From Azolla caroliniana (Eukaryota; Plantae; Polypodiophyta), in the NCBI GenBank assembly GCA_043228905.1, contig JBHGNT010000008.1, positions 21,266,001 through 21,330,000 of the forward strand: a stretch of DNA of 64,000 bases, written 5' to 3'. The position numbers were made by a program, and so were the translations under genes. Shown piece by piece: positions 1-26,728 of this stretch. The notes under the pieces are model-generated. The model saw only the letters and a program-made list of their open reading frames with translations, searched no databases and was not told the DNA's origin. Every line of letters starts with the position of its first letter. Position 1 is the stretch's first letter.

Positions 1-3000
1 TCAGAGCGTTCCGAATGGCTGTATGTACAAGGGAGAATACGCCTTCATTTTTTGACTTACAGTCGATGCTCCTTGTAGTGGAGAACCATGCTGGTGCGTC
101 AACAAGTGCACCCACTGACAACCGGATGCTGTACACGGAGACGGATCGGCCCCGTGGGCATGGTGGATTAGGCGGGTTGGCTCGCAATGGAATCGACTGA
201 CAAGAGTTGGACCGAAGGCACAAAGAACGTGCCGAAAACAATTCCGGACCCTTCACAAGCAGGGGGAGTCAAGGCGGCGTCGGAGGCCGGCAAGCAAAGG
301 TCGACATGGAATGCTGGTACTGTGGCAAAAAGGGCCACAAGGAAAGCGAGTGCTGGAAGAAGCACGCCGATTTGGACAGATCCGGATCTGGCAAGGCCGA
401 CAGAGAGAACTGGCAATACTCGCACTACGCAGAAGGATCGGGAGGATCCAAAACCGGAAAAACCGATAAAGGGCCAATCTTGGTGATGAAACACGAGGCT
501 AACTTGCTGAAAAAGACCACTTCCTAACTGGAGGAAGTGTGGTACATTGAGTCCGGTGCATCGAATCACATGATGAGCCACAAAGAGCGGTTCTCCTTCT
601 TGGAGAAACCGGAACAACCCGGAGTCGTCGAAACCGGAGACGACACTCCTCACCCAATCGTGCATGTCGGAGAAGTCCCTTTGAGCCACGTCGGACAGAG
701 TGGGAAGCTGATGAACATATTACACGTTTCGACTATCACGAAGAACCTGGTGTTAGTTGGTCAGATCGTTGACAAGGGGATGCAGGTGTTTGCAGTTTAC
801 GCACCTTGGGTGCTTCATCGAGGAAGAGGGCCAAATCATTGTGCAAGGGCGCAGAGATGGGAGGATGTTCATCCTCGACACAAATGACATCGGTAACACT
901 TTGTTCGCCAAAGGACAGAAGGTTGAATCGGACATCGACCTGTGGCACAAGAGGATCGGGCACGTCAATTACCGGAGGCTTCAAGACCTGCAAACGAAAC
1001 AAGTCGTTTTTGGTGTGCCAAAATTTAGCGGCCGGAAGGCCGAAATTTGTGAAGCTTGCCAAATCGGGAAGCAACACCGGCTTCCATTCCCCACCGAACG
1101 AAATCGTAGCCGTAACATGCTCGACCTTATTCATTTGGATGTATGGGGACCGGCATAGAACATGAGTCTTGGCGGGATTCGATATTTCGTCTCCTTCATC
1201 GACGACTACAGCCGGCACGTGGATCTACCTCATTGAGCGGAAGAGCGAAGTCTTCGAGTGTTTCCGGAACCTCTGAAGTTTGGTTGAATGGGAAATGGAG
1301 AGGAAGATCAAGTGCCTGCGGTGGGATGGTGGAGAAGAATATTTGTCCAGCCAATTCAACAGTTATCTATAACAAAAGGGAATTCAGCGAGAGTTCAGCT
1401 GCAGATACACACCAGAACAGAATGGTGTGGCCGAGAGGAAGAACCGGTTGCTTATCGACACCGCAAGGGAAATGCTGGAGGAGAAGAGGATGCCCCATTT
1501 CTACTGGGCGGAGGCGGTCTGGACGACCGTCTACATCCAAAACCGGATTTGTGACAAGGTGTCCACGCATGAGCTATATTTTGGGCGCAAGCCGAATTTG
1601 CGACACCTTCAGATATTCGGAAGCATTGCATATGTGCATGTGCCGGATGCGAAGTGGAGGAAGTTGGAATCAAAGTCAGAGAAATGCATCTTAGTCGGTT
1701 ACTCGCATGAGCAAATGGGGTATAAGTGTTATAACCCCCGAACGAAGCAGGTCCGAGTTAGTCGGGATGTTGCGTTTGATGAGACGGCATCATGGTATGC
1801 CTTACTGGCTCCGACTTCCGACCCCAACCCGAAACCGGAGGATGAGGCTAGTGAGCTTGAATCGGTCCAGTTAGTAGATGAAGACCTCGGCACTCTAGAA
1901 GAGAGTCCGATCTCACTTCGGTTAAGTGGAACAAATGAGTGGCTGAGTCGGGATGACCAGTCGGATGAGGAATTAACGAGTATTGGAGACTCTGCCCTGC
2001 TCTCCCCATGCAAGGAACCGAGGAGACGGTTCACATGCAAACAAAAGGGGAAGAAGAAGATGTCGGAATATGAAACCGGCGACGATGAGTCAGATCGGAG
2101 CAAATACGACTCCGGAAAGGATGAAGGTGGATCTTCGGGAACGAAGTCCAAACCGGCCAAGAAGGGCCCCAAACCGAGTAACGATAAGTTACACCGATCT
2201 TCCCGCTAGAAGAACCCAGTGAAGCGGTACAGATACAATGAGTACATGGCGCATCACTATGCGTACATGACGAAGGTGGTAGAAGTGCGTGAGCCGGAGA
2301 GCTATGCAGAAGCGGCAAAGGACGCAAATTGGCGTGCCGCTATGAAGGAAGAAATACCGGCACTCGATGCCAACGACACATGGGACCTAGTTGACCCTCC
2401 ACGACACTGTAAACCGATCGGATGTAAGTGGGTGTACAAGGTAAAGTACAATGCCGATGGTTCGGTTAACCGGTACAAGGCCCGATTAGTGGCGAAGGGA
2501 TAGGCACAGACCCACGGAATCGACTACGACGAGACCGTCGCTCTGGTAGTGAAGATGACAACGGTTCGTGTGGTGTTGGCGGTTGTTGTGGCAAGGGGGT
2601 GGCATCTTCACCAGATGGACGTGAAGAATGCATTTCTTCAAGGTGATCTGGAAGAAGAGGTCTTTATGACCCAACTCCCCGGTTTCTAGTCGGAGATGAA
2701 CAAGTTGGTGGTATGCCGGCTGAAGAAGTCACTTTATGGCCTGAAGCAAGCCCCAGAGCTTGGAATGCGAAAATCACGCATCAGTTGCGTAAGATGGGGT
2801 TTGCAGCCTCCAAGTCTGACTCTTCGTTGTTCATTTGGCAAGGTCTGGATGGTCCGGTTTGCATCCTATTGTATGCTACACCGATGCCGACTGGGCCGGC
2901 AATGCATCGGATTGCCGATCTACCTCCGGATATATGTTTTCCCTTGGTAGCGCTGCTGTTGCGTGGAGCAGCAAAAAGCAGCCAACAGTGGCCCTTTCGA

Positions 3001-3878
3001 GCACTGAGGCTGAATACCGGGGCGTTACCATTGCCAGCTGTGAAGCCATTTGGCTTTGGCGACTGCAGCAAGACCTGTGGATCAAGGTGCTGACCCTGAT
3101 CCTGATCTACTGCGACAACATAAGCAGCATGCAGTTCGCCAAGAACCCCGTATTCCATGCTCGCACAAAGCACATAGAACTGCACTACCACATCGTGTGT
3201 GAGTGTGTTTTGAGCGGTGAAGTTGAACTTCGCTATGTTCATACGGATCGGCAAGTTGCCGACATGTTCACCAAATCGCTCGGATCGGACAAGTTGCAAC
3301 ACTTCACCGAAATGCTTGGTGTTCAACATCTTGACGTGCCACACTTGAGGGGGAGAATGGGCAAAGACAACGGAACGGGCAAAGGCAAAGAAGTTGCCGA
3401 TTGTGTCAGTGAGGGAAGAACTGACAAAGGGGGAGACAAGAAGAAGGCCAAGACCTGGACATGGTCTGATGTGGTGAAGGGCCTGGAACCGGAAGACGAA
3501 TCGGGAGCGACCGATTCGGACAAGAGCTAGAATGAATCGGAGACAGCCGATTCAGTTCAACAGACGGATTCGGAAGAACTAGGTCAATTCAAGGCCAAGA
3601 GGACGAGAAGGCAGCGAAAGTCGATGCCAACATGAAGCAATTGGCGAATCGGCAAGAGCTGAAGTCACAGCAACAAGGGAGCTGAATTGGGCCTGTTGAG
3701 GAGACAATCTGACCAAGGAAGTTGAGGTGCGTAGAATCAGACGGGTCGCGGCAAATGGGACCGAACTAGACGAGGAGCGCGAGCGAGGCAGAGTGAGGCT
3801 AGAAGGAGTTGGGTGGAAGGACCGATTGCCATAGAGACTGACACTACGATCTGACCTCAAGTTGAGCTTGAGCAGGAG
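1..3878 (+). mobile_element. Ty1/copia retrotransposon internal region (decayed gag-protease-integrase-RT-RNase H), truncated by window start
   Basis: Copia domain order in broken ORFs: zinc knuckle CWYCGKKGHKESEC (207-527), protease WYIESGASNHM (537), LWHKRIGH..CEACQIGKQHR, MAERKNR integrase, [58 protein letters not shown] RNase H; multiple stops and frameshifts. Confidence 0.95.
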
Positions 3879-4260
3879 TGTTGAGCAGCAAGCTCAACCG
3901 GATCCGGATCGGCTGAATAAGCCTGGGCCGGATCGACATCCGGAAGGATGAGCCGGATCGGTGAGTTGGGGAGCCGGTTAGCCGGATCCAACAATAACCG
4001 GAAGCCTAGTAGTAGCCTAGATTGCTAGGTAGTTAATAGTCTCGTAGTTAGTGTCAGACGCCCGAGTGAGCATTGAAGTACGCGGTACTTCTGTCAGCCC
4101 TCTTAGGACTTGTATAAATAGTGCTGTTGAGCACGTTTCATCTACAGAGAACTATTATTGTTTTGTAATAGATTTAACTTGTTTTGCTCTCTCTTTGTCT
4201 CTCTCGCATATTGTCAAGCTCTCCATTAAACCTGTGTTTCTGTGTTCGGTTTTCTATTAC
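3879..4260 (+). repeat. 3' LTR (truncated) of the copia element
   Basis: Starts TGTTGAGCAGC after a purine-rich tract (GAGCAGGAG); TATA-like TGTATAAATA at ~4111; ends abruptly where the Sola1-like relic begins. Confidence 0.7.
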
Positions 4261-4918
4261 TTCCGCACGCCATTCGTTTTTACATGTAACAACTTCTTAT
4301 TCATGTTATTTTCCTTTGTTGTTTTGGCACCTTTAGCCATGCACTTGAGGTTTGCAGAGATTGAGCAATACCCCATGCATACTTTCCGTGGTATAATAAC
4401 GTTTGTAAATTGAGTCAATGTCCACAATCTGTTGAATTGGCTATATGTGACATATCTATCACTCAATGTACACATATCTGATATGTAGGACTCATATACC
4501 TCTTGTCGTGTGTAATTATCTAAGAGATCCATTTTGCCTATAGTTGGAATTACTTCACAATTTAGCTTGAAGTAATTCTTCATCCAACCAAGAACATGTC
4601 TTCTAGTTGCACCCGTCATACTTGGAACATTGCTACATTGGATACTAGGATCACTGTTAAGAACTTGTTGTTGCACTCGATGTAATCTCATGTTACTAAT
4701 GCATAACGAAGTTTTGAATGCAACTCTACACTATTGTTGTGAGTAGAAGATATATACTCAAATGAGATAATGATGTCTGATGATCTGTTAGACACCATTT
4801 GCATGTGTGTTGAAAGGTAAGTGTCTTGTTCATCACCAGTGAGTGAAAAATAGTAAGGCCTTAACTCCCAGAACTTATCCTTACAAATCTTGGACATGCA
4901 ACCACGGCCACAACACAA
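4257..4918 (-). pseudogene. Sola1-like DNA transposase N-terminal relic
   Basis: ORF pieces CCGRGCMSKIC..LRPYYFSLTGDEQDTYL and IPTIGKMDL..TRQEVYESY..SQFNRLW..FTNVIIPRKVCMGYC match the pattern I associate with Sola1-type transposase N-termini; catalytic core missing where the copia LTR abuts. Confidence 0.55.
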
Positions 4919-5453
4919 TTTGTTTAGGTCTAATCCGAGTTGTTCTTTGATGTTACTAGGTCCAACCTTGCTCGATGTATTCTACGTGGAATCCTCCGCA
5001 TGTGCACAGGGCTTGCTGACTGGTTGCCTTGTGCATAAACATATGGATCCACATGGAGATAAGAATGTCGGTTTGTGTCCTTCACTCAATAATCTTGGAT
5101 ATTTGAGTGCCATTTTCTTCAGAGTCTGTATCGACATTGTAGTTGTACTGTTCAATAGAGAACTCTTGATCTATGTAAATATTTCTTGGAGTTTGGGGAA
5201 AGAAAGACCCACACAATATTCCTCAATAGAAAAAGGCGACCCTCCTAAGAAAGAATACTCGTCAACAGAATATTGCGAGTTTTGACCCATGGCTCAAATT
5301 CATTTTATCTCTGACTATAATTCTCTCTTGTTCAAATGAGAGGTTCTAACAAATGGATCAATATAGATGTGTATAAGTTCCTTAATATTATTTTTATAAA
5401 ATAATGACATATATTTATAAATTTGCAATTGTATTTATAAAATTAAAACATTT

Positions 5454-5458
<5 letters not shown>

Positions 5459-5496
<38 letters not shown>
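5459..5496. repeat. (TA)n microsatellite within an AT-rich tract (~5360-6000)
   Basis: Direct reading. Confidence 0.95.
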
Positions 5497-5499
<3 letters not shown>

Positions 5500-6304
5500 C
5501 AAATACACTAGAATATATAAATAATAACATTTTTATTTAAATACATATGATTTTATGAAAATTTATATACATAAATATAAATATAAAAACATATATGTAT
5601 TCTATGTATTTATATAAAGGAGGTCTAAGTATACATGAATACATCTATATCTAAATATTATATAGCTAAGACTAAATTGTTAATATCTATACATGTATAA
5701 ATAATTGTTATATAGTGTATATAACAATATATTATACAAGTATATATAGTTATAAAGAATAGCTATATAGTTATATTGATATATATATCTATAGATCCTC
5801 AATACATATACACGTATATATATATGTGTATATAAATCTATATTATACAAGTTTATATATACATATATATTTTCTATATACTATTCTTTTTTATATCTCA
5901 ATAACATAAATAACTATATATAACCACCCATATATTATATAATTTACCTATATATTACTATATAACCTACCTACCTACCTATATATATAGTTACACTAAC
6001 TAACCCCGATTAAACTAACCGTAGGCACCAAACTCACATGCAACCTATAAATAGTCAAGTCTCCTCATTTTGAGGAGCACAGAGCATAGAGAGTGCGAAA
6101 GGAGCACAAACCCTTTGACATGACCATTAAGCATGGACATTCTGATCGAGCATGCACAAATATCCTAACAAAGACATCTAACCAATCATGCACGTATTTC
6201 CTAGATCCCCAACTCACCAAACATGTCAACTGAGAAGATCGAACACACGGACTCTAGGTATGTACCCTAAACTCGTTACTCCATGATAAAAGACATTACA
6301 TTCC

Positions 6305-6630
6305 CCAACTCGATGCATTGTATCAAGATAACAAACCTTTACACTCTGCAAACACCAACTCGATACATTATATCGAGTTGGATACTATATTAGAGTCCCT
6401 ACACCAACTCGATACATTGTATTGTGTTGGATACTCTATTGTAGTCCCTACCCACCAACTCGATACATTGTATCGAGGTGGTGCTATGTTTCAACATCAA
6501 CTCGATGCATTCTATCGAGTTGGTGTTAAAAATTTATGATTTTTACACCAACTCTTTATTGGTGTTTAAAAGACAGGAATTCGGGAAACTATCTTTTCAA
6601 CATCAACTTGATACATTGTATCGAGTTGGT
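6305..6630. repeat. Array of ~6 copies of the 27-bp palindrome CCAACTCGATACA-T-TGTATCGAGTTGG, mostly ~45-50-bp period
   Basis: Copies at ~6305, 6355, 6403, 6455, 6498, 6603 with 1-5 mismatches. Confidence 0.9.
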
Positions 6631-6750
6631 GTAAAATTCCTCGGTTTTTTGGAGAAAATGTACTCAAAACTACATTTTTTATGCTGAACCCCACTAGTTA
6701 TTTTAAATGAATTAAGGCCAGTTTTAATAAAATTATAATGGTTTTTGACT

Positions 6751-6985
6751 AAAACAATCTCGTATTGACCTGTTGGAGGCCCCAATTCCTCTTTTGATCC
6801 TTACACCTGACTAGAAAATCTCATATTGACTTGTTGGAGATCCCAATTTCTCTGTTGATTCTTCCACCTATACTCCCCATTGGCTGTTTTCCTGAATTAA
6901 GGCTTTTCTTCTTAAAAATTAAAGATTTCTAACTAGATTTTTCATATTGAGTCTTTGAGGACTCTAGATTCTCTTCCAATCCTTA
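6751..6985 (+). repeat. ~60-bp tandem repeat, 2 clear copies plus 1 degenerate
   Basis: AATCTCGTATTGACCTGTTGGAGGCCCCAATT.. repeated as AATCTCATATTGACTTGTTGGAGATCCCAATT.. Confidence 0.75.
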
Positions 6986-7209
6986 GAACAAAAAAATGTA
7001 CGCTTTACAACAAATTCTCTCTTTCCTTTTGTCTTGAGGTCACATTGCCTCTAAGTAGAATTGGATCTTTCATGTTTTCACTGATAATTTTAGGGTGATT
7101 CTGATATGTTGGATAAACATGTTCATAGGTTGTAGTTATAAGCCTAGAATGTTATCCTTGTAATACGTTTGCTGAGAACAGGTATAAACGACAAGTCAAG
7201 AAAATCCGG

Positions 7210-9684
7210 TTGAGGTATCAAAACCCTTGGGTAGACTCAAAGAAACAACATGTCTTTGGCAACACCAAAAAAGGAAAGAAATTGTTGTTTAACAAAGACA
7301 TAACTGAGCAACCCTCAGACGAATTTAGTCAGAAAAAGGTGGTGGCTATAGTGGGGGGTGAAGACTTACTTGACAAAGATATGACTGACCACGAGTGGGC
7401 ATTACAATATGTCCACTCGAATAAAAAGCTCGTCTTATTGACAACAAGAAACAAGGGTCATGGACAACTTGCCAAAGAATGCCCATTTTGTTATGGCCAG
7501 GTCTTGTGACTTGACTATGAAGACCCGGAGTAAGAAAAATGTACATGTCTAAAGATCGATTGGTAAAAGAGTCTTCTGGCCCAGAATCTTTACAAGTCGC
7601 TATCGAGACATCTAATAACTTGATCACAACATTCAGACCATACATTAAAGGCCATGTGGCATTAAGAGAACCATCACCAGTCAAGGTGGCACCAAAAAAG
7701 GTTGCCAATCAATCGAGGCCACCCAAAAAGAAAATATCAAAAAGGTTTGAATCTGAGTCTTCTTGTTCGACAAATGACGAAGAAACACAGGCTACACTAG
7801 GGGCAGAGCTTGCCTTTGGTGTGTTGTCATCTGAACAAAATAAAATCCGAAGAGAAATAATGCAGAAGAAGCTTGTGCGAAATGGCTCAGTATTTAACCT
7901 TCCCATTACCCACATCCACTGGCCCCTTATTGATGCTAGAATGGGACGAATAACACTTGAGATAATAGAGCCACACAAGTTTCATCTCCGAAACTTAAAG
8001 AAAAAGATGAAGATTAATCCCCATGCCACAGTTGTGCCCTTTATTGTTATGGTTGATCTTGTTGAATGTGCAACTATAGAAGAATTCGATGTGAGAAAGC
8101 ATGACCAATACAACTACTTTGTTATTGGTGGATCACATTTGGCTAAAGCACGAAGGCAACTAGTAAGAGAACATCCTACGACCTTCTTCTTCAAGTATGC
8201 CGAATTCAAAATTTACGTGGGTGTAACGACTGAAGAGGCGAAATGGCTGGTGTGGGATCATAATAATGAAAATGATTATAGACAAAAGATGTCTTCCATC
8301 GAGTGAATAAGATTCCTCCACCATGATTATTTATTTAGATGCCAAACAAAAGTTTGGTCTAAAGCTCTACCCAGGGCTAAGGCGTTAATGTCTTCATGAT
8401 GTTGGCATTGTCATGGATGACAACGTCAACTTGTCTAATGGTCTACGAAAATATGAGTCTTGGTTTCAACTAACATTTTGAGATGGGGACGTGTGGGATC
8501 TACAAGATCACATATTTACAATGTGGAGAATAGGGAGGTCAAGGGACAAAGGCAAAAGAAATCTCGAGTCAATCCCCAGCTAGACTAAAGTCAACAATGG
8601 GCAAAAAGGTCGACGTCACAATTGAAGAAGCTATCTTAGTGGAGAGATATGCAAGGGATTAAATATGAGCAACTACTTGTTTCGATTTTGTCGAGAGCCA
8701 TGGCCAAGGAGTTAAGCTTGGAAGAAATGGTCACAAAGTTCAACAAGTAAATTCTTTATCAGTTTATTAATTTGTAAGTGTTGGGCCTTTGTGAGATATC
8801 CGGAGCTCTAATGTGTCTTATTGATTTTACAACCATAAGGTATATATGGAGATACAAGAAGTTATGATGAAGCACCTTGGATGCATAACTAGATTATCCG
8901 ATGACATCTTCTTATAAGGCGTTGTTGGAATACTTTATTGCATTCAAGGATTGGGTTAGTATTTTTCTTTTATTTGGCATTCTATTATGGTTTATATTTT
9001 TACTATTAACTAAGACACTTTTTCTATTGTAACTATTAAAAACCTTGCCGTGGCAAGAAACCAGGAGAGGTCAAGGATATACATGGCTTTCCAACGTCCT
9101 TTCTTACACATCTTGAAAGAGATAGGAAAGAAAAGGATCAACGCTTAGTGAAACCATACGATGTTGAAGACAATGGAACTTCCAAGAAATTCAACCACAA
9201 AAAGGACATCACTAGAGACTTATACTATAATGACTTTTGTGGAGATGTGGTAGAGGTAAACCTGAATCTACCAAAGAAGGACTACAGTCTGCTTATTGCA
9301 GATATACCTTAGGATTTTCGCATGGCAAGTTTCTCTTATGATGATGAACCGTTTAGGTTCAAACAACTAGAAAACATGGTAAAAGATTTTGTGAAACTAA
9401 CCACAACGTCCTTGTGGAGAATTGTTGTGTTTCATAGAATGGACCAAGGGTACTCTATGGCTCAGGCATTGAGATCTCGCTGCCATGGCATTGCGAAACT
9501 TGCTTCGTAAGGATTATATATTGTGATAAGTTGAATAAATTTATTTGTCTATGATTCTTTCTATTTAATTCTGAATTGTGTCTTCTGGTTCCTTGTGATT
9601 GACAGGATAAAAACCAATGTGAATAGAGGACCAACATTTCGGTTCGTGAATGAAATTGAGTACATAACTATTGGTTATTTCGAT
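7210..9684 (+). pseudogene. Intron-containing ParB/Srx-like domain + amino-(N6A/N4C) DNA methyltransferase-like gene, decayed and truncated by a copia LTR
   Basis: ORF 7539-8306: VVPFIVMVD..YFVIGGSHLAKAR..KIYVGVTTEEAKWLVWDHN..MSSIE (ParB N-domain pattern). From 9241: GDVVEVNLNLPKKDYSLLIADIP*(TAG; DIPY if restored). After a GT..AG intron (~9507-9605): (S/W)IKTNVNRGPTFRFVNEIEYITIGYF, like the beta-class MTase WxK..E motif. Confidence 0.6.
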
Positions 9685-10120
9685 TGTTGAGAATCAAGCT
9701 CAACCTAGTCTAGTGTGTGAACACACCTTTTGAGAATTTATGCACACTCAAAGGTCAAAGGTCACCACGATTTTCTACATATTAATTATGTGTCATAGAA
9801 TCAGAATATATAACACACAACTATTGAGTTCCATATTCCCTATAACTAATGAGTTTCCACATTCCCCACGGTTCTAGTGAGAGAGTGGGCATTTTAGTGA
9901 GAGAATCTAGAGAGAGGGTGCAGCACCCTCCTCCTACTTTGTAATGCGTCGGTTAATCTCCTTTGTAATATTCATAAAGTTGTAGTTGTTCTCCTCTTCC
10001 TAATACATACATCTTCTCAAGAGTATTTCATTTTTCCTATCTATCTATCTTGTGTTTCTCTCCGATCCTCTCCTCTTTCCACACACACACACACACACAC
10101 ATAACACAAATCCTTAATCT
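9685..10120 (+). repeat. 5' LTR of copia element B (3' end and PBS deleted)
   Basis: TGTTGAGAATCAAGCTCAACC start; near-identical to 19045-19470. Confidence 0.9.
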
Positions 10121-11911
10121 ATGTCCATCACAAGCTACACCTTAAAGATCAAGGAGCTCTATGACTCACTCGGCTCAATAAGCGTCCACATGGAGGATGA
10201 TGAAATGGTGCAAATATGCCTAGGCGGCCTCGCACCACGGTTCAGCATGATGAGAACCGCCGTTCTGGCAAGGGAGAATCCTCCCTCTTTTTTCGATCTT
10301 CAATCAATGTTATTGGTTGAAGAAAACCATGCTCGAACCAAGAGAAACACCTTCAAAGGTCAAATTCTCTACACACAATCGAATGGAGGAAGAGGACATG
10401 GTCGAGTAGGAAGAGGCCGATTCGGCCAAGGACGAGGCGGACGAGGTCCGCCCTATGAAAACAACTCCCAAATTCGGCAAGAAAACAAAAACAACCAAGG
10501 AACATTCAAAAGCAGGGGGAGCTTCCACAACAACTCAATTGAATGCAGATATTGCGGTAAAATCGGCCACCACGAAGAAGAGGGCTGAAAGTAGAAGCGT
10601 GAGTGAGCTTCCACAAGCCGACAACTCACCAATTATGCCACCAACTCCGACTATGACGACCATGAAGAAATGTTCGGGATGAGACATAGAGAAAATTCTA
10701 TGTCAGCCTCTACTCCGACATAGAGAAAATTCAGAAGAAGTATGGTTTGTCGACTTCGGTGTCTCAAACCATATGACGTCCCATCAGGAATGGTTTTGGG
10801 ACCTACGAGAGCGGGATTGACTTGGTTATGTTGAGACTATAGATGACACTACTCATCCGATTTGACACATTGGCAATGTCCCATTTGTCAAAAAAGGCAA
10901 CCAAACATACATTAAGAATGTCTTGCATGTACCGATCATCACAAATATTTTGTTCTTAGTCAGCCAAATTGTGGGGCAAGGGATGCAAGTCCATTTTAAC
11001 CATGCAAGTTGCTTAATTGAGAAAAAGGGCCGACTCAGCACTCGCAGATGAAAAGAGAGGTCTGGATGTTCATTCTCGATTTGCATGAGATTAAATCGGC
11101 CATGTTTGCAAAAGGACATATAGCTATGGCACAAAAGAATTGGTCATATCAATCTCAATAAACTCAAGGGCATGCAGTCAAAAGGAGTCATCGTCGGGCT
11201 CTCGACCTTCAAAGAGAAAGAGATTGAAGGTGTATGTGAAGCTTGCCAATTCAACAAACAACATCGGCAACGGTTTCCAAAAGAAAGAAACCTAAGCAAA
11301 GAACTCCTGACGTAATCCACTCAGATATGTGGGGTCCAGCTCAAACGGCAACATTCAGAGAATGTTGATACTATGTTACGTTTATCAAGGACTTCTCTAG
11401 GCACTCTTGGATCTTTCCCATGAGGCAAAAGAGTGAAGTGTTCGCACACTTCCGAAAATTCAAAACTGGATTCGAAAAGGAATCAGGTCGGCATGTTTCA
11501 TGCCTTCGGTTGAATGGAGGAAAAGAGTACTTCTCTGACCAATTTTTGACTTATCTTCGGAAAGAAGGAATTCGGAGAGAGTTTACATGCTGACACACAC
11601 TGTAATAGAACGGAGTGGCCGAACGCAAAAATCAGTAAATGCTCGAAGTAGCAAGTGCCATGCTGAACGTGAAGCACATGCCAAAGTCATATTGGGTTGA
11701 AGCAACATGCACAGTCGTGTGCCTAATCAACCGATGTACAACATCTAGCATGCACGATGTAACCCCTCATGAGAAATATTACAAAAGAAAGCTAGATCTA
11801 TCCTACGTCAGGATATTCGGCTCTATTGCATATGTGCACATCTCCGACGAAAAGTGGCAAAAGCTAGAATCTGATCCCAAGTCAGAGAAATGTACCCTCA
11901 TAGCATACTCA
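10121..11911 (+). mobile_element. Copia B gag/protease/integrase remnant
   Basis: SFFDLQSMLLVEE gag, CRYCGKIGHHEEE knuckle, WFVDFGVSNHMT protease, integrase to SEKCTLIAYS; interrupted after ACTCA (11907-11911). Confidence 0.9.
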
Positions 11912-11968
11912 TGTTGGGAAAACAGATCCCTCTGGATGGGAAGAAGAGAGCAAACCGAATCAAGGACA
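11912..11968 (+). repeat. First ~57 bp of the 5' LTR of inserted copia element C
   Basis: TGTTGGGAAAACAGATCCCTCTGGATGGGAAGAAGAGAGCAAACCGAATCAAGGAC matches the reverse complement of 17182-17238. Confidence 0.85.
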
Positions 11969-13829
11969 TGAGAACCGAGAACCGGAAGAAGGCTTACAAG
12001 TTCTTCTTGCGGGGCGAAAAGATATGGCGGCACCAGAAGAGGCGGAATGGCTCTCAGCTTTGGGTGGTGACAAAGGAGGAGAAACAACCGGTGCTCGTGT
12101 CGGAGCTCCATGAGAGCCCTTGGTTCAGACATCGAGGGACATGGGCCACGTTCGAAAAGCTTAAGGAGAAGTCCTGGTGGTAGGGAATGTATCGTGACGT
12201 GCACCACTCCATGATGACATGTGAAAGTTGTCAAATGCATTCCGGAATCCGGCACGGTGATGAGCTGCACCCAACCTACCTGCCAACTGTTCAATCCAAG
12301 TGGATGGTCGATTTAGTGACAATGCGGATGGGGGTAGAACAAATGCGGTATTTGATGCTTGCACGGGAGGACCTAACAAATCATGTGGAGGGTCAAGCCC
12401 TAGCGAACAAAACGACCGTAGTGGTTTGTCAATTCCTAATCGAGGACGTGATTTGCCGATACGGGTGTGTCGGGAAGATAGTAGCTGATTGAGGGAGTTG
12501 GAGGCGCAGGAAGCTGAGGAGTTGTTCAATCGGGTAAGGGTCTAGCTCTCTCTAACGATTGCGTACAACGTAGAGATGAACGGAAAGGTTGAGAGAGTGC
12601 ACATGTTGATTGTGAAAGCACTAGTACGAGCATGTGGCAGGAACTGGCCAGGCCTCTTACCTTATGCTTTGTGGGCCGACCAAACTACGCACAGTTTGAT
12701 AACCGGATACATGCCGCCCGAACTCATGTTCGGGCAGAAGCTGGTCATGCCGATGGAGAGGACAATCTCCTCATGGGTGTTGGTTGACGAGTCGAATGAG
12801 ATGAGCTGAGAGAAGCTACTGGTGGCGTGGATCCGACAGCTCGAGTGACGACCGGAGGACGTGGAGCGAGGTAAGGCAAAGCTACATGCGATGAGAGAGA
12901 AGAACAAATAGCGGTTTGACTGGACACATCAACTCCGTCTAAAGAAGATCGAAGAAGGCGACTGGGTGCTGGTCTACGATAGTAGCCTTGACAACCAACA
13001 CCGGTCGACTCAGAAGTTTGCATAGTCATGGTTTGGGCCCTACGTGGTGACAAGCACCAACAACAACGTGACATACCACTTACCCGAGCTCGACGGGATG
13101 AGGATAGCAGTACCGATGGTAGGAAAACGGATAAAGGCCTTCAAGAAGCGTCATGAAGACGAACTGGATCTTAAGGCAGAGGTCAAGAGCATGACGAGAG
13201 CGAGGAGTCGGAGCCGGACGAGGACCGGATTGATGACGGTTTGAGAGAGGACAAGTAAAGACCGGGCCAGAATCCCCATCGCTTCACTAGTTAGCACAAG
13301 CTGGAGAATGTGCGGTTTGGTGGGGCTAGATGTCGTGGGGAATTCCGGCTACGGGGAGATGGGGAGCCGAGAGAGCATGGGAATGGGAGTGTGCATGGAT
13401 GCACACAAAACTTGTCTCAATGTACAATATGTGTAAATAACATAAGACCGGTGATTACTAGTGGATAGGGTTTTTTATGGGTACTTTAATGACCCACACG
13501 TATAGAGAAGAATAAAAGTGATAGACAAGAGGAAATCGAGGGGAGGATCAAGGACGGAAAGCGGTTGTAGTAAAAGCTTGATGTAACGATCTTCATCTCT
13601 ATGAGGAGAAGACTGAGAAATGATCCTCATATTAGGAGAACGAAGTGTTGGACCAAGCTCTATAGAGTTTCATTTCTCTCTTTCTCTTTTTCAATTTTTG
13701 GTTGTGTTGCGAAGCCTCCATTTTGCGTTGGTAGCCCGTGTGCTCCCAATCAGAGGCTTGTTGTCGCCTATGTGGGTGTGTGTGTGTGGATCTCAAAGCT
13801 CTTTTACCTGGCCGCGACCGGTTGTAACA
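11969..13829 (+). mobile_element. Ty3/gypsy integrase remnant, PPT and 3' LTR (13331-13829)
   Basis: ELHESPW..HRGTWATFEKLKEKSWW*GMYRDV..TCESCQ HHCC finger, KWMVDLV, ICRYGCVGKIVAD, NGKVER, WFGPY; GGTGGGGCTAGA then TGTCG...GTAACA. Confidence 0.85.
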
Positions 13830-14862
13830 TACTAGGTTTCTCTATTAATCTATAGTTTGTTGTGTTTATTCTTGTGTCCGTCATGTGAGAAACATATGAA
13901 ATCGGGTGTGGTTCTTCTCATGAAATATAAAAAAATAATAGTGAAGATACTATTTTAAATAAGTTTAATATCTTGATACAAAAAGATAGAGGTCTTGAAG
14001 AGATTTTGAATGCAATTTGCTACATAACAAACACACATCTAAGTGTTAAGTTATGTGGGTATGAAGTTTGCAAAGAAAAAGAGAAAAATAAAAAATTATC
14101 AGATATCCCACATAGACAGGACAAATAAGGATCTCACCATATATAGGGCAGAACAAAAGCTATTATGTTTGTGTTTATGTGTGGAGAATAGAAAGGATGA
14201 GTTGAATGACTTGACGAATGGATGTAGCCAAGTTCATTGGTTTTGGACGGCGACGGAACCGGACGATGACGGCATCTGGCGACCTCGAGATGCAGACCAA
14301 ACCGGTCCATACCGAATGGATACAATTCAGACGGATTGGTTGGGTCAGTTGATCGTGGTGCATGGTGTTTTAAAGATATTTGGTCCAAAAGCCTAATAGT
14401 ATTTTGTGCTTTAAAAGGGATGTAAGCAAAGACTTAAACCTTGCACCTCCAAGATAAGAGGCAATAGACATGTGATGCATGAGCGCCAAATGGCAAACAT
14501 GCATCACATGCATTCCATGCATTGTATGCATGTCTTGTACCCTCACATGCATCATATGCATAGGAGCATCTATAAAAGGGTGGATGAAAAATATCAAAGG
14601 GACCTATGCATTAATCAAAAAATTAAGAGGAAGAAAATTTGTTATTCCATTTTTGTGATGTATTAGTCTTGTCTCTCAATCTAAAGTCAAACATTCTATC
14701 TTATCTCAAGCTCTCTCTCTCTTTCAATCTATCTTAAATACTTTCTCGCTAAAGCTTGTGCAAACTTTGAATCCTTCCGGTCAAGAACCCCGGCGGGTTC
14801 GCCTCACGATCTGCACGTAGTGATAGATCTTCACGATAGCGTGGAACACTAGGTTTTGAGCT

Positions 14863-16675
14863 AGATGGATATTGCTCATGTTGTCGCACTAAAGGGGAAT
14901 CAGATCCTTGATGGGAATGTCCAGATCCTTCAATATTTTCTTCACCCAAATGACTTCACATGCAACCACAATCGTGCCCCTGTATTCGGTCTCTATGCTC
15001 GAAAGTGACGGTTGACTGCCTCTTGCTACTCCATGAGATGGCTCCACTTCCAAGCGAGAAGATGAATCTTGAGGTTGATCGTTGGCTGCCTCTATAGCCT
15101 GCCCAATCGGCATCCGTATATGCTTCGAGTCGAATTATCGTGGCTGACTTATAGAGGATTCAGTAAACCATTGTTCAACTCAAGTATCGTAACACTGGCT
15201 TATCACAATCTAAATGAATATCCTGTGCAGTTTGCATGAATTGGCTAAGGAGGTTGATCGGATAACTGAGGTCGGATTGAATGATCGGGAGATAAACAAG
15301 GCTTCCAATCAATGGAGTTGTCTCACACTCTTCCATGCCGGAGTTGGCAACTAGCTTTAGGTTTCGATTTAGAGGGGTTACCACAAACTCACACTCCATC
15401 ATCATCCCAAACATATATAATAAGTTGAGGATGTACTACCGTTGGGAGATCATAATGCCGGCTGGAGTCCAAATTACCTCGATACCAAGGAAGTAATGGA
15501 GCTCTTTCATGTTTCTCATCTCGAATTTTCCGAAGAGGATGGTCTTCATCCGGTTGATGTCGACTAGATGCTCACCTTCAATGACTAGATAATCCACGTA
15601 TAGGCTGATGACAATCAATCTTATGTAAAGGGATTTGACATTTTGAAGGCGATTTGATGATGATACTAAGTGACCTTGGAATGCCAAGTCCATGGCACTT
15701 GCTTAAGGCCATAGAGTGGCTTCTTTAGTCGGCACACTGTTGTTGGATGTATGCTAGATTTGAAGTCGGGTGGTTGTACCATGTACACCTCTTCTAATTC
15801 TCCTTGAAGAAAAGGCGTTCTTGACGTCCATCTCATGGAGGTCCCACCACCCTTTCCTTGCTGCAAGCGCTATCATGGTCCACATAGCTATCATCTTTGC
15901 CACCGGAACAAAGGTCTCTTCATAGTGGACTCTGTGTGTTTGTGCTTAACCTTTTGCTACAAGTTGAGCTTTGTAGCGGTTGACGAAGCCGGCGGCATTA
16001 TACTTCACTTTGTATATCCATTTGTAGCCAATTGTCTTCTTGTGATGAGAGTGGGGGAAGAGATCCCATGTTTCATCCTTAAAGAGATCTTGAATCTCCT
16101 CGTTCATTCACTTCAGCCCATTGTGGTTCTTTACCGGCTTCAGAAAAAAATTTGGGCTCTCAAATTGTCGCCACCTTTATCATAAATGCACAGTGATATG
16201 CCATATAGTTGTTGAAGCTGAATCGCCTAACTGGATTCTTCTCTCGGGTGGAGCATCGAAGTTTGGCATTTGTCGTGGCAATGGCTTTCTGCACGCCAAG
16301 TCTCCTTCCTCATAATAGGCACATCAAAGCCATCAAGCTCACTGTTAAGTGAGTGAGCCGATTCATTACCGTCAAATTGGTCGTCTTCATATTCCGGCAT
16401 TTTTTCGTTTCCTTTATTCATTTTTAGACTTGGCCATGACATGCTTTGCTCGCTTGGAGGCTCTTGAGGTCCACTCAATCTGTTTGAGATTGAACTCTCC
16501 TCGGATATCGATCTTAGGTAATCATTGTCCTTTGTGTCGTCAAGTTAGATCAGAAATGGTTCGAGTGGAGTCGACTTGGGTTTGTACCATGATTCGTCAA
16601 AGACTACACCCCAACTTACACAAACATTCCGAATAGAGGGGTTGAAGCATTTGTACCCCTTTTGCTCCAATGAGT
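14863..16675 (-). mobile_element. Inverted continuation of copia B (integrase C-terminus, RT, RNase H)
   Basis: Minus strand resumes where 11911 stopped (TACTCA-TTGGAGCAAAAG = YSLEQKGYKCFNP); RT motifs LYVDYL, ELHYFLGIEV; RNase H TEYRG. Confidence 0.85.
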
Positions 16676-18050
16676 TGTTCAGAAACATGAATGGAGACAA
16701 CTGGTTCCACTTTCTAATCTTCGGGTGCAAAGATCAAGAAAGATAGTGCACAAACAGAAAAACAAGTACAGAGACACAAGATATTTAACGTGGAAAGCCC
16801 CAAAAGGGAAAAACCACGTAGGTCCACAAACCACCTTGACAAACAGAATCACTATGATAGAGGAGAAGTACAATAAGAAACTCGGAGGCAATGACCTCGA
16901 GTTCTTCATTGTCTAACTGATGGATGTAGGGTCACCAACTCTTATGCTCTCACTGTCTCTCACTTACATAGGTACAGAGGCAACTCCTTCTATGTAACTA
17001 TACCACCAAAACCCATAATGATCAACTAATTTACTTAAAGTTTGCCCTCGTTGTTTATATACTAAAACAACTTTCTGGCTATGTTCAAGTATAGCCCACA
17101 AGGGGCACATTTGGACTATTTACAAATATAGTCTCCTGAATCGGTTATACAATCGATTCTCGATTCACGAATTACCCATTGTGTCCTCGATTCGGTTTGT
17201 TCTCGTCTTCCCATTCGGAGGGACCTATTTTCCCAACAAACTCCCCTTTCACTCCGTCATGGGGTACTTCACCAATCCGGCCCCTTGTCTGCACTCATTC
17301 AACTTCTCTGCTGACAACACTTTCGTCAACATGTCCGATCCATTTTCAGTTGTGTGGATCTTCATTAGAGAAAACACATTCTCTTTTAGTTGCTCTCAGA
17401 TCCAATGATATCTCCTATGGATGTGCTTGGTCCTCGAATGGTAGGCGGCATTTTTTGCAAGGTGGATGACACTCTGGTTATCGCAATTGTGTCGGAACTC
17501 CTCTTGTCGAATTCCCAATTCTTTGATAAATTCCTTCATCCAAATTATTTCCTTGCCGACTTCTATTGCGGCCATGTAATCGGCTTCCATGGTTGACAAC
17601 GACACGGCCTTTTGCAGACTCGATTGCCACGAAACAACTCTCCCTGCATAAGTCATCACATATCCAGAAATGGATCGATTGGTATCCACATCAGCCGACA
17701 TGTTCAAATTAGTATAACCTTTTAGTGTGGGGTTACTCAAGCCAAATTGGAGGCACAAGCTCGAGGTGCCTTTTAGGTACCGAAGTATCCACTTCACAAC
17801 AACCCAATGCTCTCTTCCGAGATTCCTCATATATCGGCTAACCACTCTGACTACATACGCGATGTCGGGCCTGGTGCAAACCATTGCATACATCAGGCTT
17901 CCAATAGCTGACGCATAAGGGACTTTTGACATCTTGGCCTTCTCAGTTTTCGATTTCGGACTTTGGCTTCCGAACAATTTACAATTTGTCGCCAGTGTTG
18001 AGCCGACCGGTTTCGCGCTTTCCATGCTGAATCACCGGAGCACTTTTATC
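16676..18050 (-). mobile_element. Copia C RT/RNase H, PPT and complete 3' LTR (16676-17238), inverted
   Basis: ORF 17396-18025 VPYASAIGSLMYAMVCTRPDIAY..RTKHIHRRYHWI; PPT AAAGGGGAGTT; LTR TG..CA followed by TSD ACTCA (plus-strand TGAGT 16671-16675). Confidence 0.9.
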
Positions 18051-18199
18051 ACGTTGTCGCAGACTTCCGCGGGTATGTGTTGAATCGAGGTGGGACCACC
18101 GGGGTACGGAGCCGATGATAGAGGGAAACTTATCTGGATTGGTTCCCGGACACGTCACATATCCGGTCCAGATCGATTCTTGAATGCTGAATGGTGAGC

Positions 18200-19044
18200 G
18201 CTCAACTCAAAGACAAATGTTGCTCCGGACTGGTAGATGCAAACAACAACGAGCTTACGGGCCAGCACACACGAATATATCGAAGTGCACTATCACTTCA
18301 TCTGAGAGTGTGTCCAAGCTGGAGATGTTGACCTTCAACACATCAACACGAATCTTTAGACAACCAAAATCTTCACTAAAGCAATAGGAGCCGACAAGCT
18401 TTGGTAATTCATATCACACCTTGGACTAACTATCCCCGACTTGCCAATCTTGAGGGGGAGTACAAGAGAGAACCGGATACCAGCCGAAGCATACATCAAC
18501 TGAGATGGACACCATAGGAAGGTCGAAAGTCGAAAGCCGACCAAAGTTGAGCTTGAAGGGGTGTGTTAAGAATCAAGCTCAACCTTGACCGTCACAGTTT
18601 CGAGCATAGAGGTCAAATCCAGGGGCGTGATTGTGGCTGCATGTTAAGTTGTTTGGCTGAAGAGAATATTGAAGGATCTGGACATTCTCATCAAGGATCC
18701 GATTCCCCTTCACTGTGACAACATGAGTTGTATTCCATGTGCATATCGAAGTGCACAATCACTTCATCTGGCTCAGAACTCAGGTTGAAGATGTTGACCT
18801 TCAACACATTAGCCTGAATATTTAGACAACCGACATCTTCCCCAAAGCCCTAGGAGACAACATGCATTGATAATTCATGTCAGACCTTGGACTAATGATC
18901 CATGACTTGCCAAGCTTGAGGAGGAGTACGAGGGAGAACCGGATACCATCCGAAACGGATACAAACTGAAGCGTACATCAGCTGAGATGGATACCATAGG
19001 AAGACCAAAAGCTGAAAGCCAACCAAAGTTGAGCTTGAGGAGCG
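18200..19044 (+). mobile_element. Two tandem copia B-family RNase H tail/3' UTR fragments
   Basis: ATATCGAAGTGCAC..CACTTCATC (IEVHYHFI) and AAGTTGAGCTTGA PPT region each present twice (~18280/18745; ~18545/19027). Confidence 0.75.
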
Positions 19045-19508
19045 TGTTGAGAATCAAGCTCAACCTATTCTAGTGTGTGAACACAACTTTTGAGAATCTA
19101 TGAGCACTCAAAGGTCAAAGGTCACCACTACTTTCTACACATTAACTATGTGTCATAGAATCACATTCTATGACACATAACTAATGAGTTCCATATTCCC
19201 AATAACTAATGAGTTTCCACATTCCCCACGGTTCTAGAGAGAGAGTGGGTGTTTTAGTGAGAGAATGTAGAGAGAGAGTGACCTTATATAAAGCACCCCC
19301 CTCCTACTTTGTAATGTGTTGGTTAATCTCCTTTGTAATATTCATATTGTTATAGTTGTTCTCCACTTCCTAATACATACATCTTTTTGAGTATTTCATT
19401 TTTCCTATCTATGTATTTCCTCTCCTCTCCTCTTTCCACACACACACAGACACATAACACAAATCCTTAATCTATTCCACTGCATAGAATCACACTCGAT
19501 TCTTTACA
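19045..19508 (+). repeat. 3' LTR of copia B family
   Basis: TGTTGAGAATC...TCTTTACA; homologous to 9685-10120. Confidence 0.9.
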
Positions 19509-21014
19509 TCCCACTCCAGATATTGATTTGTGTCCCTCAGTGTCATATATCACACACTCATCAAGACTTTATCAAGCTCCAAGATCAAGGCTCTTTTTTC
19601 GACTTCTAATGGTTTAGGTTTCCATTCCTATAACTGAGCCTCTGTTACACCAATTACTGGTAGCACACGATCAATTTCAATCAATTGAGGTTCTATCGGC
19701 ACAATTGGTGTCCTTTTCCTCTTCAAACCCCTAGTTAACTGTGTTGGGCCTGGCTTCACATTTTGGTGCTCTTGTATTGTCGACTTAGTCATTAGCTCAG
19801 TGCATGTTGATACTGATCTGGTCGATATCAGCCCACTGGTATCACATGTTGCATCTACCTGCAAAATCAAATCATCTGTGCAACATGCTTGATCAACTTG
19901 CGAGACCAGATCATTTGTGTCAATTGCTACATCTACTTTCAAGATGTGGCCCTCAAAACATGCAACAACATCAACAGTTTCCACACTGCCATCGGCCTTA
20001 GGAGCAATAGATTCAAACCCTTTAGACTCTGCAACATCAGAAAACACCAACATATTCATACTCACAAAGTAATTAATAGTCTCACAAAACAACATAATGA
20101 ACATGAAATATTTTCCATCATAGAGCAACATGAACATAATTATCGTGGAGAAACATCATAGAGTTCCATTACATAATGTGGATCAAGCAACAACCAATCT
20201 GAGGTTTTACTTGTCCAAATAGATCGTAGTAAAACTTCATAAAACCCTAGGAAAATCGCTAACAATCATATCCCACTAATAAGTATTTCGCTCCAATTCA
20301 AGAGCCCCTTGACCGAGTAACTGTTCTTGTCCCCGATCGTGGCCCCTTCTTCAACCTTTTTCTAACTGGTTGCCCATTTAGCCTTGCTTCTTTGACCCAT
20401 TGTGCAAGTGTGTCCTCCTTCGACAACCTTTCCATCACCTCAGCAGCGGCTTGCACGTCAGCCGCATCTTTCGCTAGCTTTTCCAATACAATGCGATTTG
20501 TTTAGACATTATCAGTAGTTAGGCTCAGTGGGTGGAATCAAGGTTTTGGGATTTGAAGAAATGTTGCATCAAGTGTTCAAAAACACTATTGTTGTGAACC
20601 TCAGATTTACATGTTATTTCTAATATTTCATGGCTTTTCACATCGTTGCCTAATTCAGTACCATCTTCCAAAAGAATAGGGTGGAGCTTATCTGAAGGAT
20701 ATGTGATAGCAGGACTCTTACTTTCAGCCACATTAGCAACTATCTCCTCATTGGTTGCAGCCAGCACCAGACACCTCATGTGCCCTCCTTAATCCACAAG
20801 ATTCCACAACAACATGGTCACTAATTAGCTACATCTTAGCTAACTAGCTATTCTTCTAGACTATGACAGTAGCTAATTAGCTACCACTGAGCTAATTAGC
20901 TACTTCTCTTAGGTATGGTACTAGATGATTAGCTACCACTTAAGTCGTTGGCATTTGTTGTTATTGTTTGTTAATTAGCTACCACTTAGTTAAATGATTA
21001 AGTCGAGCTTAAAT
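19509..21014 (-). mobile_element. Older, decayed copy of the Sola2-like element, left piece (HAD-like cargo gene fragment, 168-aa ORF homolog, start of palindrome array)
   Basis: ORFs 19628-20137, 20298-20486 and 20525-20779 are diverged homologs of 26729-27862 and 28033-28539; AGCTAATTAGCT units from ~20819. Confidence 0.85.
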
Positions 21015-22190: not shown

Positions 22191-22360
22191 TGAAATCCTC
22201 TACTGTTCGGTCTTGGATTGCAATAACTTTTCTGTCTATTGATTATCTTGTGTATTGTTGTGTCTAATCTTGTGTATTGTGTGGAATATTTTTGTGTATT
22301 GTTGTTGCCCATAGCCATCTTTAATACTTGTTTTTTTTTCTGGAAATTTAGGGTTTTAAC

Positions 22361-25300: not shown

Positions 25301-26148
25301 GCCATGGTAAAGGTGAACATGATGGTGCAGGGGCTGTTATAAAGCGGGCACTTACCCATGAACAACTAAAGACAGATGGTGTGCACATGAATTGTGCATC
25401 ACATGTAGTTGAATTTTTAAGAACAAATATGTCGACGAGTGCCACAGGTGTTTATTCCTCGCAAGTTCGAGATATCAAACGTGAATTTTGGGAAGTGAAG
25501 ATAGATGAAGTAAATAGGGAGAAGACCTGGGAGTGCCAAGGAATTCCCGAATTGCGATCTCTGCATGCTGTTCGCGGTTATTCCAGGTTGGATGGTCATT
25601 GTATTGCGGTTAGAGAATTGACTTGTTTTTGCTTCCATTGTGTGCAGGGAAATTGGAGATATTGTCTAAACAAAGCATACATTCAGAATTGGGAGTATCA
25701 CACTCTGAATGATAAGGAAGCAGTTGATGGAGAAACAGGGCAGAATGCTGACTTCACATATGAGGGACTTGGAGATACTTTGAGTGATGTCCTGAACGTT
25801 GGGGATAACTTCGCTGTAAATGCTGAAGAAGGCAATTCAGAGGGTGCTGATTTCTATATATTAAAGTGCACGGTTAGTAAACAGTGTGCAAGGCAGAATA
25901 TTGTAGATGCATGGGGAAATTTTGTATCTGCCGGGACATTCTACATCGAAGGCATTTTTTATGCAAAACTAGATGACTACGAATATGTGTACAGGCTGTT
26001 AGAAGACAAACCAGCGGCGTATATGTACTCTCATTTGGTCAGATGCATCAACGTCCCAATGTCAGAATACAATAGCTGCTCCGGTTTATACACTGTTGGT
26101 GCTAATGTGTATGAATGTATTTACAATAGTATGCCATGGAATTTGTAG
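22361..26148 (+). CDS. Sola2-like DDD transposase, two exons (22361-23110 + 24307-26148, ~863 aa)
   Basis: Donor CCTCAG|GTATTT and acceptor ACGTAG|GTCGAT join in frame (..LLDVPQ-VDLFIRFKRMHP..); HTH-like ISELSKVIGVSRKTVY; TCCCIYH and Cys clusters; catalytic-type VVDFAENY, WSDGAASQFK, GHGKGEHDGAG; same splice sites in the second copy. Confidence 0.88.
23160..24290. repeat. Intronic array of the palindrome TAGCTAATTAGCTA
   Basis: Dozens of copies at ~20-bp spacing separated by short linkers (CCATGA, CTAGGA, CTAGAC). Confidence 0.97.
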
Positions 26149-26583: not shown

Positions 26584-26728
26584 CAGCTAATTAGCTGTCA
26601 ATAGCTAAATAGTCATCAATAGAATGAAATCAACAATCTGCAACATATTCCTCAAATTACACAGTAGATAAGTACAGTGGGAACAAGTAATTAAATTCTT
26701 CATTGAATAATGTCATCTCTTTACATAT

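Follow-up and report, generated by a model that had tools for sequence, protein, structure and literature searches.

A transposon that carries a fused ParB-like and amino-methyltransferase gene has been described in Ectocarpus, where Sola1-1_Ec32 encodes, as an accessory gene, a 1104-amino-acid protein with a ParB-like part and an N4C/N6A methyltransferase (PMC12477816). In red algae, the accessory genes PAG2 and PAG3 of Plavaka elements encode a PF01555 methylase and a ParB-like protein, and tandem inverted repeats beside the ParB gene have been proposed as its binding sites (bioRxiv 10.1101/2025.02.11.637652). For both groups the hypothesis has been published that such elements mark their own DNA (PMC12477816; bioRxiv 10.1101/2025.02.11.637652). 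Here we describe the design in a land plant. The window, a stretch of 64,000 nucleotides from Azolla caroliniana (GenBank assembly GCA_043228905.1, contig JBHGNT010000008.1, positions 21,266,001 to 21,330,000 of the forward strand), holds at positions 4285-9684 a dead copy, truncated by a long terminal repeat (LTR), of a cut-and-paste DNA transposon of about 9 kb that carries a ParB-methyltransferase gene.

Compared by description, the Azolla element shares with Sola1-1_Ec32 a ParB-like and amino-methyltransferase fusion on the strand opposite the transposase, a 4-bp target site duplication (TSD) and termini that start with AAC (AACCG-CGGTT in Ectocarpus, AACACG-CGTGTT in Azolla). The Azolla element is shorter, at about 9 kb against 21.5 kb, has terminal inverted repeats (TIRs) of about 36 bp against 282 bp, and is present in its land-plant host in hundreds of young copies, whereas Sola1-1_Ec32 has 2 intact ones; the accessible part of the Ectocarpus description mentions neither a palindrome array nor a selection test (PMC12477816). 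In the red algal elements, by contrast, the two domains sit in different genes, with a 2OG oxygenase joined to ParB and a SET domain to the methylase, and the EnSpm/Plavaka elements that carry them are mostly degenerate (bioRxiv 10.1101/2025.02.11.637652). The design is already published for Sola1-1_Ec32, and partly for red algae; what is new here is the host range, and a family that is young, intact in many copies and testable.

The predicted folds and the array of palindromic sites also resemble bacterial ParB/Noc/KorB-parS systems and beta-class methyltransferases (CcrM, M.BceJIV, M.MboIIA, M.RsrI; phage PHROG 67), from which the Azolla element is set apart by spliceosomal introns, an extra N-terminal beta domain and the lack of ParA or a restriction enzyme. 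Bacterial-type beta-class amino-methyltransferases occur in eukaryotes as Marchantia MpDN4MT1 and bdelloid N4CMT, but these are host genes rather than transposon cargo, have SPPY and write N4-methylcytosine (4mC), and the accessible accounts mention no ParB domain in them (PMC8885841, PMC10406627, bioRxiv 2021.02.12.428880). DAM-carrying DIRS/LTR retrotransposons and VANDAL elements encode enzymes that likely tune the transposon's own epigenetic state; the former, however, are retroelements whose enzymes are of the NPP type, and in the part of that report available streptophytes are said to have no DAM-LTRs (bioRxiv 10.64898/2026.05.21.726589). VANDALs remove 5-methylcytosine (5mC) (bioRxiv 10.64898/2026.05.21.726589, 10.1101/2025.02.11.637652), whereas Azolla copies keep a normal 5mC deamination signature. 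No land-plant clade of such methyltransferases is listed in the accessible part of PMC4738411, and our literature search found no report of a land-plant ParB-methyltransferase transposon, although subscription papers, Repbase or supplements may hold one.

Enzymatically written N6-methyladenine (6mA) is disputed in land plants, and no assay of a transposon-borne ParB-methyltransferase is reported in the literature searched. To the algal reports the Azolla family adds young copies by the hundred, 97-99% identical, together with intact genes, catalytic motifs under selection and a candidate binding site, and thus makes transposon self-marking directly testable. Beyond algae, the design now reaches streptophytes (Chara, liverworts, ferns and Ginkgo), outside ferns through homologous genes alone, and 6mA surveys should examine such elements rather than genome-wide averages.

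The transposon family

A search of the 523-Mb Azolla genome with the ParB-like segment gave 1163 candidates, 150 of which were scored. All 150 match, at about 82% protein identity (nearly all at 80-83%), which puts the resemblance well outside chance, and many lie in open frames 570-630 codons long. About 9.0 kb is shared at 97-99% identity by ten regions of 20 kb that surround young copies, and the termini of this unit are inverted repeats in which 35 of the 36 outermost bases match. The exact 27-nt terminal-repeat end occurs 643 times in the genome, against 0 for a control. Target duplications of 4 bp were found in 8 of the 9 copies with both ends in view and in 17 of 18 further copies chosen solely by their paired terminal repeats; two additional stretches that did not span both ends of the element were omitted from this set.

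Intact copies encode, on the minus strand and head-to-head with the ParB-methyltransferase gene, an intronless transposase of about 925 residues with a Pfam match to DUF7869 (E 1.8e-51). Its motifs IDGMD, QLDNT and DHIDQMF, which probably form a DDD triad, are retained in the 12-13 related transposase matches that span them. A 4-bp TSD is a trait of the Sola superfamily (PMC10741241), and together with a putative DDD-type enzyme it would fit the element to that superfamily, in which it is placed by the description of Sola. Membership in EnSpm/CACTA or Plavaka is ruled out by the 4-bp TSD and the AACACG termini, since those elements have TSDs of 2-3 bp (PMC12730594). The head-to-head arrangement recurs in all 11 related loci with at least 3 kb of upstream sequence; one other related locus has a transposase downstream. 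Among the 18 copies picked by their TIRs, the full methyltransferase-gene frame is present in 6, the full transposase in 8 and both in 2.

Gene structure and selection

Six exons joined at five GT-AG introns give a single frame of 974 residues in 3 of the 5 copies parsed by anchor-based exon joining, which was tried on 10 copies and lost the other 5 to anchor mismatches; by alignment, the full frame is found in 10 of 24 copies. The motifs of intact copies follow the beta-class order DIPY, W-IKTN, NPYQKP, DLFSGTGTT, ALEKD, with DIPY at residue 692 and DLFSGT at residue 852, such that catalytic motif IV precedes the S-adenosylmethionine (SAM)-binding motif I. Exon 5 of an intact copy scores 31 bits with PF01555, above the curated cut-off of 26.7. 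A preliminary description of the window had proposed a gene with introns on a plant DNA transposon and a beta-class amino-methyltransferase arrangement, a reading that a lack of catalytic and SAM motifs in intact paralogs would have refuted. Both proposals are borne out, by the introns, TIRs and 4-bp duplications and by the DIPY, NPYQKP and DLFSGTGTT..ALEKD motifs of intact copies, and none of the three refuting conditions named in that description came true. The ParB-like and methyltransferase regions, which might have come from unrelated fragments, form one gene, a single spliced frame within one transposon bounded by TIRs and TSDs.

Conservation and selection were assessed on related loci from a metagenome scan, of which the best 80 of 141 were taken. 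Motifs are retained in most of those that cover them (DIPY 45/50, NPYQKP 38/42, DLFSGT 39/42, GSHS 74/80), as are the GT donors (63/69, 54/59, 44/44, 42/42) and the AG acceptors (47/65, 47/55, 37/44, 38/39, some being shifted by indels near the anchors). Synonymous sites are saturated across these loci (median proportion of synonymous differences, pS, about 0.8). Median ratios of nonsynonymous to synonymous substitution (dN/dS), taken from unsaturated loci alone (7-14 per segment, 3 for the transposase) that are related and hence non-independent, are 0.03 for the ParB domain, 0.05 for the helical domain, 0.04 and 0.03 for methyltransferase exons 4 and 5, 0.18 for exon 6, 0.47 for the linker and 0.07 for the transposase core. 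As far as sequence comparison goes, these values show the ParB and methyltransferase domains to be under purifying selection.

Two contigs of run X1 (RNA by guess, depth 4-6) end exactly at the exon-4 donor of a related decayed locus and resume inside exon 5; their 13-14-nt overhangs fall below the 31-nt bar and the join would give a stop codon, and they were not counted as support.

The window copy

The copy in the window is an old, decayed member of this large family, which has a young branch. Its parts are as follows.

4287..5293 (element edge 4285), minus strand: transposase remnant, residues 1-359 of about 925, intronless, DUF7869 (Sola-like, putative DDD); tblastn E 4e-79 against the transposase of intact copies, identity 38-63%
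6223..6257, plus strand: predicted first exon (ATG to GT donor) of the ParB-methyltransferase gene, oriented away from the transposase; gapless 63% identity to exon 1 of intact copies
6309..6625, no strand: six degenerate palindromes of the CTCGATAC-N3-GTATCGAG type in intron 1, a candidate parS-like array; match to the array of intact copies
7170..8746, plus strand: exon 2 (start approximate), with 5 stops and several frameshifts; AlphaFold2 (AF2) model of an intact copy and fold searches
~7384-7675, plus strand: predicted N-terminal beta domain of exon 2, weakly PH/SANTA-like; AF2 model, fold search
~7833-8310, plus strand: predicted ParB/Srx-fold domain of exon 2, with GGSH; AF2 model, fold search
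~8314-8746, plus strand: predicted helical, ParB-DNA-binding-like domain of exon 2; AF2 model, fold search
8833..8954, plus strand: exon 3, helical linker, with a 17-nt deletion and a mutated acceptor; comparison with intact copies
9040..9506, plus strand: exon 4, first half of the beta-class methyltransferase, acceptor mutated; motif IV reads DIP* at 9301-9312 (DIPY in intact copies)
9606..9684, plus strand: exon 5, first 79 nt only (IKTN..EY); comparison with intact copies
9685..10150, plus strand: LTR that truncates the gene, outside the element, end approximate; 86% similar to 19045-19479

The ParB-like and methyltransferase motifs listed in the preliminary description are all present where it had placed them. 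The ParB-like stretch PFIVMVD...YFVIGGSHLAKAR...EEAKWLVWDHN lies in the frame 7521-8306, and the methyltransferase stretch GD..LPKKDYSLLIADIP* ends at a TAG at 9310-9312. A GT..AG intron at 9507-9605 is followed by IKTNVNRGPTFRFVNEIEY (IKTN..EY), which runs to the LTR at 9685; of the proposed (W)IKTN across this intron, the intron and IKTN stand, and the W is a split codon that is mutated in the window copy. The gene starts further upstream than had been described, with exon 1 at 6223-6257 and the palindrome array in intron 1, and the element extends left to 4285, beyond its earlier extent, to include the minus-strand transposase remnant, the remainder of which is cut off by an LTR ending at 4284.

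The copy is plainly dead, as first proposed. Read in the reference frame it meets 6 stops, several of its indels shift the frame, two of its acceptors read AA in place of AG, and the final ~190 codons, with the SAM-binding motif and exon 6 among them, are lost at the LTR. A Pfam scan of four pieces of the window gave no match. Simple insertion of the LTR at 9685 is ruled out, because there is no target duplication around the LTR pair at 9685 and 19045 and the 3' part of the gene is absent from the window; deletion or recombination therefore likely removed the 3' remainder.

Predicted folds and homologs

The AF2 model of exon 2 from an intact copy has a mean predicted local distance difference test score (pLDDT) of 75.5. 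Searched with Foldseek, it returned ParB/Noc proteins for all 12 of the matches shown at E<=0.001 (14 counted; E 6e-6 to 1e-3). VIA aligned it with PadC (Z 10.1, root mean square deviation [rmsd] 3.1, 100 residues aligned), KorB (Z 9.0), SerK (Z 8.3) and sulfiredoxin (Z 7.8), and with pNOB8 ParB at Z 8.1 (rmsd 4.8) over 207 residues extending into the helical part. Alignments with pNOB8 ParB, KorB, Spo0J and SopB extend into the helical part, but with Z scores of 3.8-9 and rmsd values up to 13.9. The ParBc profile gave no match in Pfam scans of the window pieces, the intact copy or the homologs, and the ParB assignment therefore rests on predicted structure; DUF6551 matched 12 of 34 homologs below threshold. 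Of the profile and fold matches anticipated at the outset, the ParB/Srx fold (Foldseek E 6e-6, VIA Z 10.1) and PF01555, on intact exon 5, were obtained, but ParBc was not. Among solved structures searched by sequence, the only match was TTHA0409 at E 0.5.

The methyltransferase part was folded on P0059, a natural full-length homolog (29% identical over residues 270-888; pLDDT 79). This model matches CcrM at E 1e-12 and Z 23.3 (rmsd 3.0, 216 aligned); CcrM, M.BceJIV and M.MboIIA score Z 23-22, the 4mC enzymes PvuII and N4CMT Z 19.8 and 19.4, and the RNA methyltransferase METTL3 Z 13. By these models the protein is predicted to consist of a ParB/Srx fold, a helical domain and a beta-class N6/N4 methyltransferase. 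Preceding them, the N-terminal domain (window ~7384-7675; model residues 1-118) has a PH-like beta fold; its closest structural match, the SANTA domain of M18BP1 (Z 5.9, rmsd 4.2), hints weakly at a chromatin-targeting module added in plants. In the ESM Atlas, the ParB-like region (L005:1420-2430) is linked to fungal DUF3723 with a score of 0.96, recognition being below threshold; a literature search on that family brought up bacterial ParB papers alone. This is a lead only, and DUF3723 and DUF6551 may be unrecognized ParB-fold families.

With the ParB part as query, one search returned 33 proteins and another 272 at E<=0.001. Names were looked up for 20 of 150 listed matches, 13 of which gave an organism; the named homologs come from Ceratopteris (72%), Ginkgo, Calypogeia, Adiantum, Riccia and Chara, with homology to the ParB part alone in Saccoglossus. 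The PF01555 cut-off was passed by 8 of 36 longer matches, with up to 65.7 bits in a Ginkgo homolog, and several annotated homologs had no PF01555 match. PHROG 67 matches homologs at E 1e-17 to 1e-27. An exon 4 search among longer proteins gave 0 matches at E<=0.001 among 358 candidates. In viral contigs, 15 and 33 pattern matches were obtained, none confirmed; prokaryotic genomes gave 8 pattern matches, 1 passing tblastn, and 0 loci, the patterns being plant-tuned and the evidence hence weak, and no close prokaryotic relative was found with them. The label 'bacterial-type' given to the enzyme at first thus holds for fold and family; a prokaryotic donor was not found with these patterns, and with homologs spread from Chara through ferns to Ginkgo, a transfer, if there was one, must be old.

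Two Saccoglossus (hemichordate) proteins, P0160 and P0191, have the ParB-like domain (E 3e-8) and no methyltransferase match in Pfam; judging by these sequences, the domain may have other partners in animals. Distant metagenomic homologs (P0131, P0150 and cluster members) have a canonical DPPY after ParB-like and helical domains, a possible link to non-plant lineages.

A palindrome array in intron 1

Intron 1 of the young copies examined contains 3-16 palindromes each, against six degenerate ones in the window copy, and exact palindrome sites number 3008 genome-wide versus 0 for a control. The core CGAT[AG]C-N3-G[TC]ATCG is present in 38 of 80 related loci, many contigs stopping before intron 1. 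Its spacer is fixed in length and free in sequence, with about 140 cores at 3 nt and 1 at 0, 1, 2, 4 or 5 nt, and changes in the arms are symmetric: position 5 pairs as A-T in 75 cases and as G-C in 54, and is unpaired in 12. Spacings between palindromes cluster at 31-32, 40-41, 50-52, 63 and 72 bp, with a best period of 10.3 bp that is matched by 1 of 500 random sets, or 3 of 500 when the commonest spacings are left out; these statistics come from related loci, and the null fractions are not true probabilities. The array sits about 4 kb from either element end, within the methyltransferase gene's own intron, and is not subterminal. Its layout is that expected of dimer-binding sites along one helical face, and we infer that the ParB protein is the binder.

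One related locus (L081:5116-5570) has a second palindrome array, of another subfamily, downstream, which suggests that copies of different subfamilies occur together, as neighbours or nested.

Proposed mechanism and alternatives

We favour, at about an even chance, a self-targeting ParB-methyltransferase that binds the palindromes of its own element and writes 6mA on it, transiently. A dimer of the protein would read each palindrome via the helical domain, and the phased sites would load several dimers on one DNA face near the shared divergent promoter, where the ParB domain may clamp and spread with the help of a nucleotide. The 6mA deposited there in a SAM-dependent reaction would then transiently favour transcription or transposition of intact and non-autonomous copies, and 5mC would not be kept off for long. 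The palindrome array supports the proposal, made when the gene was first noticed, that the element may mark its own DNA; the mutation spectrum speaks against lasting protection from 5mC.

Several points weigh against this model. In ParB clamps the arginine-patch CTP motif is GxxRxxA; here it is replaced by GGSHS, in 74 of 80 related loci, with GGxH also in distant homologs, and the protein is therefore not filed as a CTPase clamp. The methyltransferase fold was predicted on the homolog P0059, not on the Azolla family itself, and its matches leave 6mA and 4mC enzymes unseparated. Motif IV departs from DPPY: D-x-P-Y is retained, but the first proline is replaced by I in the Azolla family and by F or L in homologs. 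The palindromes could be bound by the transposase, the dN/dS values come from few, non-independent loci, and streptophytes are said to lack abundant 6mA (bioRxiv 10.64898/2026.05.21.726589). Mutations also leave the element looking ordinary. Private transitions in 24 young copies amount per kb to 10.3 at CG, 10.2 at CHG, 2.0 at CHH and 1.0 at A/T; CGs inside palindromes have 10.2 (10 events). The CG/CHH ratio is 2.5 in young and 4.5 in older copies, compared with 3.2 (21 pairs) and 2.3 (44 pairs) in other nearby repeats, a small control. Given this normal CG/CHG deamination, the copies are, to judge by the mutations, 5mC-marked like other repeats for most of their life. Lasting protection from 5mC, whether VANDAL-like or by a 4mC block, is unsupported by the spectrum, and any self-written mark must be transient, confined to few copies or 5mC-independent.

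The same self-targeting protein might instead write 4mC, for example at the CGA/TCGA core of the palindrome, in competition with host 5mC. The fold is matched nearly as well by the 4mC enzymes PvuII and N4CMT, there is a CG within the palindrome core, and eukaryotic precedents exist in Marchantia and rotifers (PMC8885841, bioRxiv 2021.02.12.428880). Those precedents have SPPY, however, while motif IV has D in 45 of 50 related loci here, and D rather than S in this motif favours 6mA over 4mC (PMC8885841). CG transitions, moreover, are undiminished at TCGA (9.4 per kb) or in palindromes (10.2) relative to other CG (10.4), and we regard a 4mC writer as distinctly unlikely. Rather unlikely, too, is an active enzyme aimed in trans, at target sites, host chromatin or RNA, with the palindromes bound by the transposase or serving as promoter elements. 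It would agree with the absence from young copies of any mutational sign of special marking, and beta-class folds do include RNA methyltransferases such as METTL3. The position of the array, remote from the ends and inside the methyltransferase gene's intron, speaks against it, as do the ParB-DNA-binding-like helical domain predicted for the protein and the red algal elements, which have another transposase and also have arrays beside ParB genes.

The methyltransferase domain could also be a catalytically weak or dead module for binding DNA or SAM, with the element regulated solely through ParB-like binding and spreading, be it by auto-repression, looping or promoter shielding. Selection argues otherwise: although synonymous sites have reached saturation, hardly any change is seen in the catalytic and SAM motifs (dN/dS 0.03-0.04), and D-x-P-Y and the SAM loop are both retained from Chara to ferns. 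The non-canonical motif IV (DIPY; DFPY, DLPY and DIPH in homologs), the annotated homologs that escape PF01555 and the DIRS-borne methyltransferase domains judged inactive (PMC4738411) favour such a binder, which we nevertheless hold to be quite improbable. That the gene is a passively captured host or endosymbiont fragment (Pack-type cargo), or two unrelated fragments, is largely refuted and has hardly any likelihood left. The methyltransferase frame is broken in the window copy and in 12 of the 18 TIR-picked copies, but transposases are broken about as often (10/18), the two genes keep their head-to-head arrangement at all 11 informative loci, and selection on the methyltransferase gene is as strong as on the transposase.

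Our preferred reading, a self-targeting writer of 6mA, has a bolder form that we put forward tentatively, as possible though not probable. It would be a eukaryotic parS/ParB-type system in an old, recently active land-plant transposon lineage, in which a nucleotide-gated clamp loads on the phased array, slides, and writes 6mA as a private, 5mC-independent 'on' mark. If true, localized 6mA in ferns, liverworts and gymnosperms would have a defined enzymatic origin, and the system would offer a compact tool for self-targeted methylation.

Other repeats in the window

Much of the window consists of nested Copia- and Gypsy-type LTR retroelements, dense in 1-4284, 9685-19509 and 37000-59000. A second repeat family, likely a DNA transposon, occupies 22352-36865, with related pieces at 19628-20155 and 59300-59600. 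It contains a 613-residue transposase-like frame without a Pfam match (24307-26148; inverted copy 33547-35423), a helix-turn-helix frame (22352-23188) and long palindromic TAGCTAATTAGCTA arrays. Its minus-strand frame at 26729-27868 encodes a NIF/FCP1-like phosphatase domain (PF03031, 30.8 bits, above cut-off), and the family may represent a further transposon whose accessory gene is directed at chromatin or RNA polymerase.

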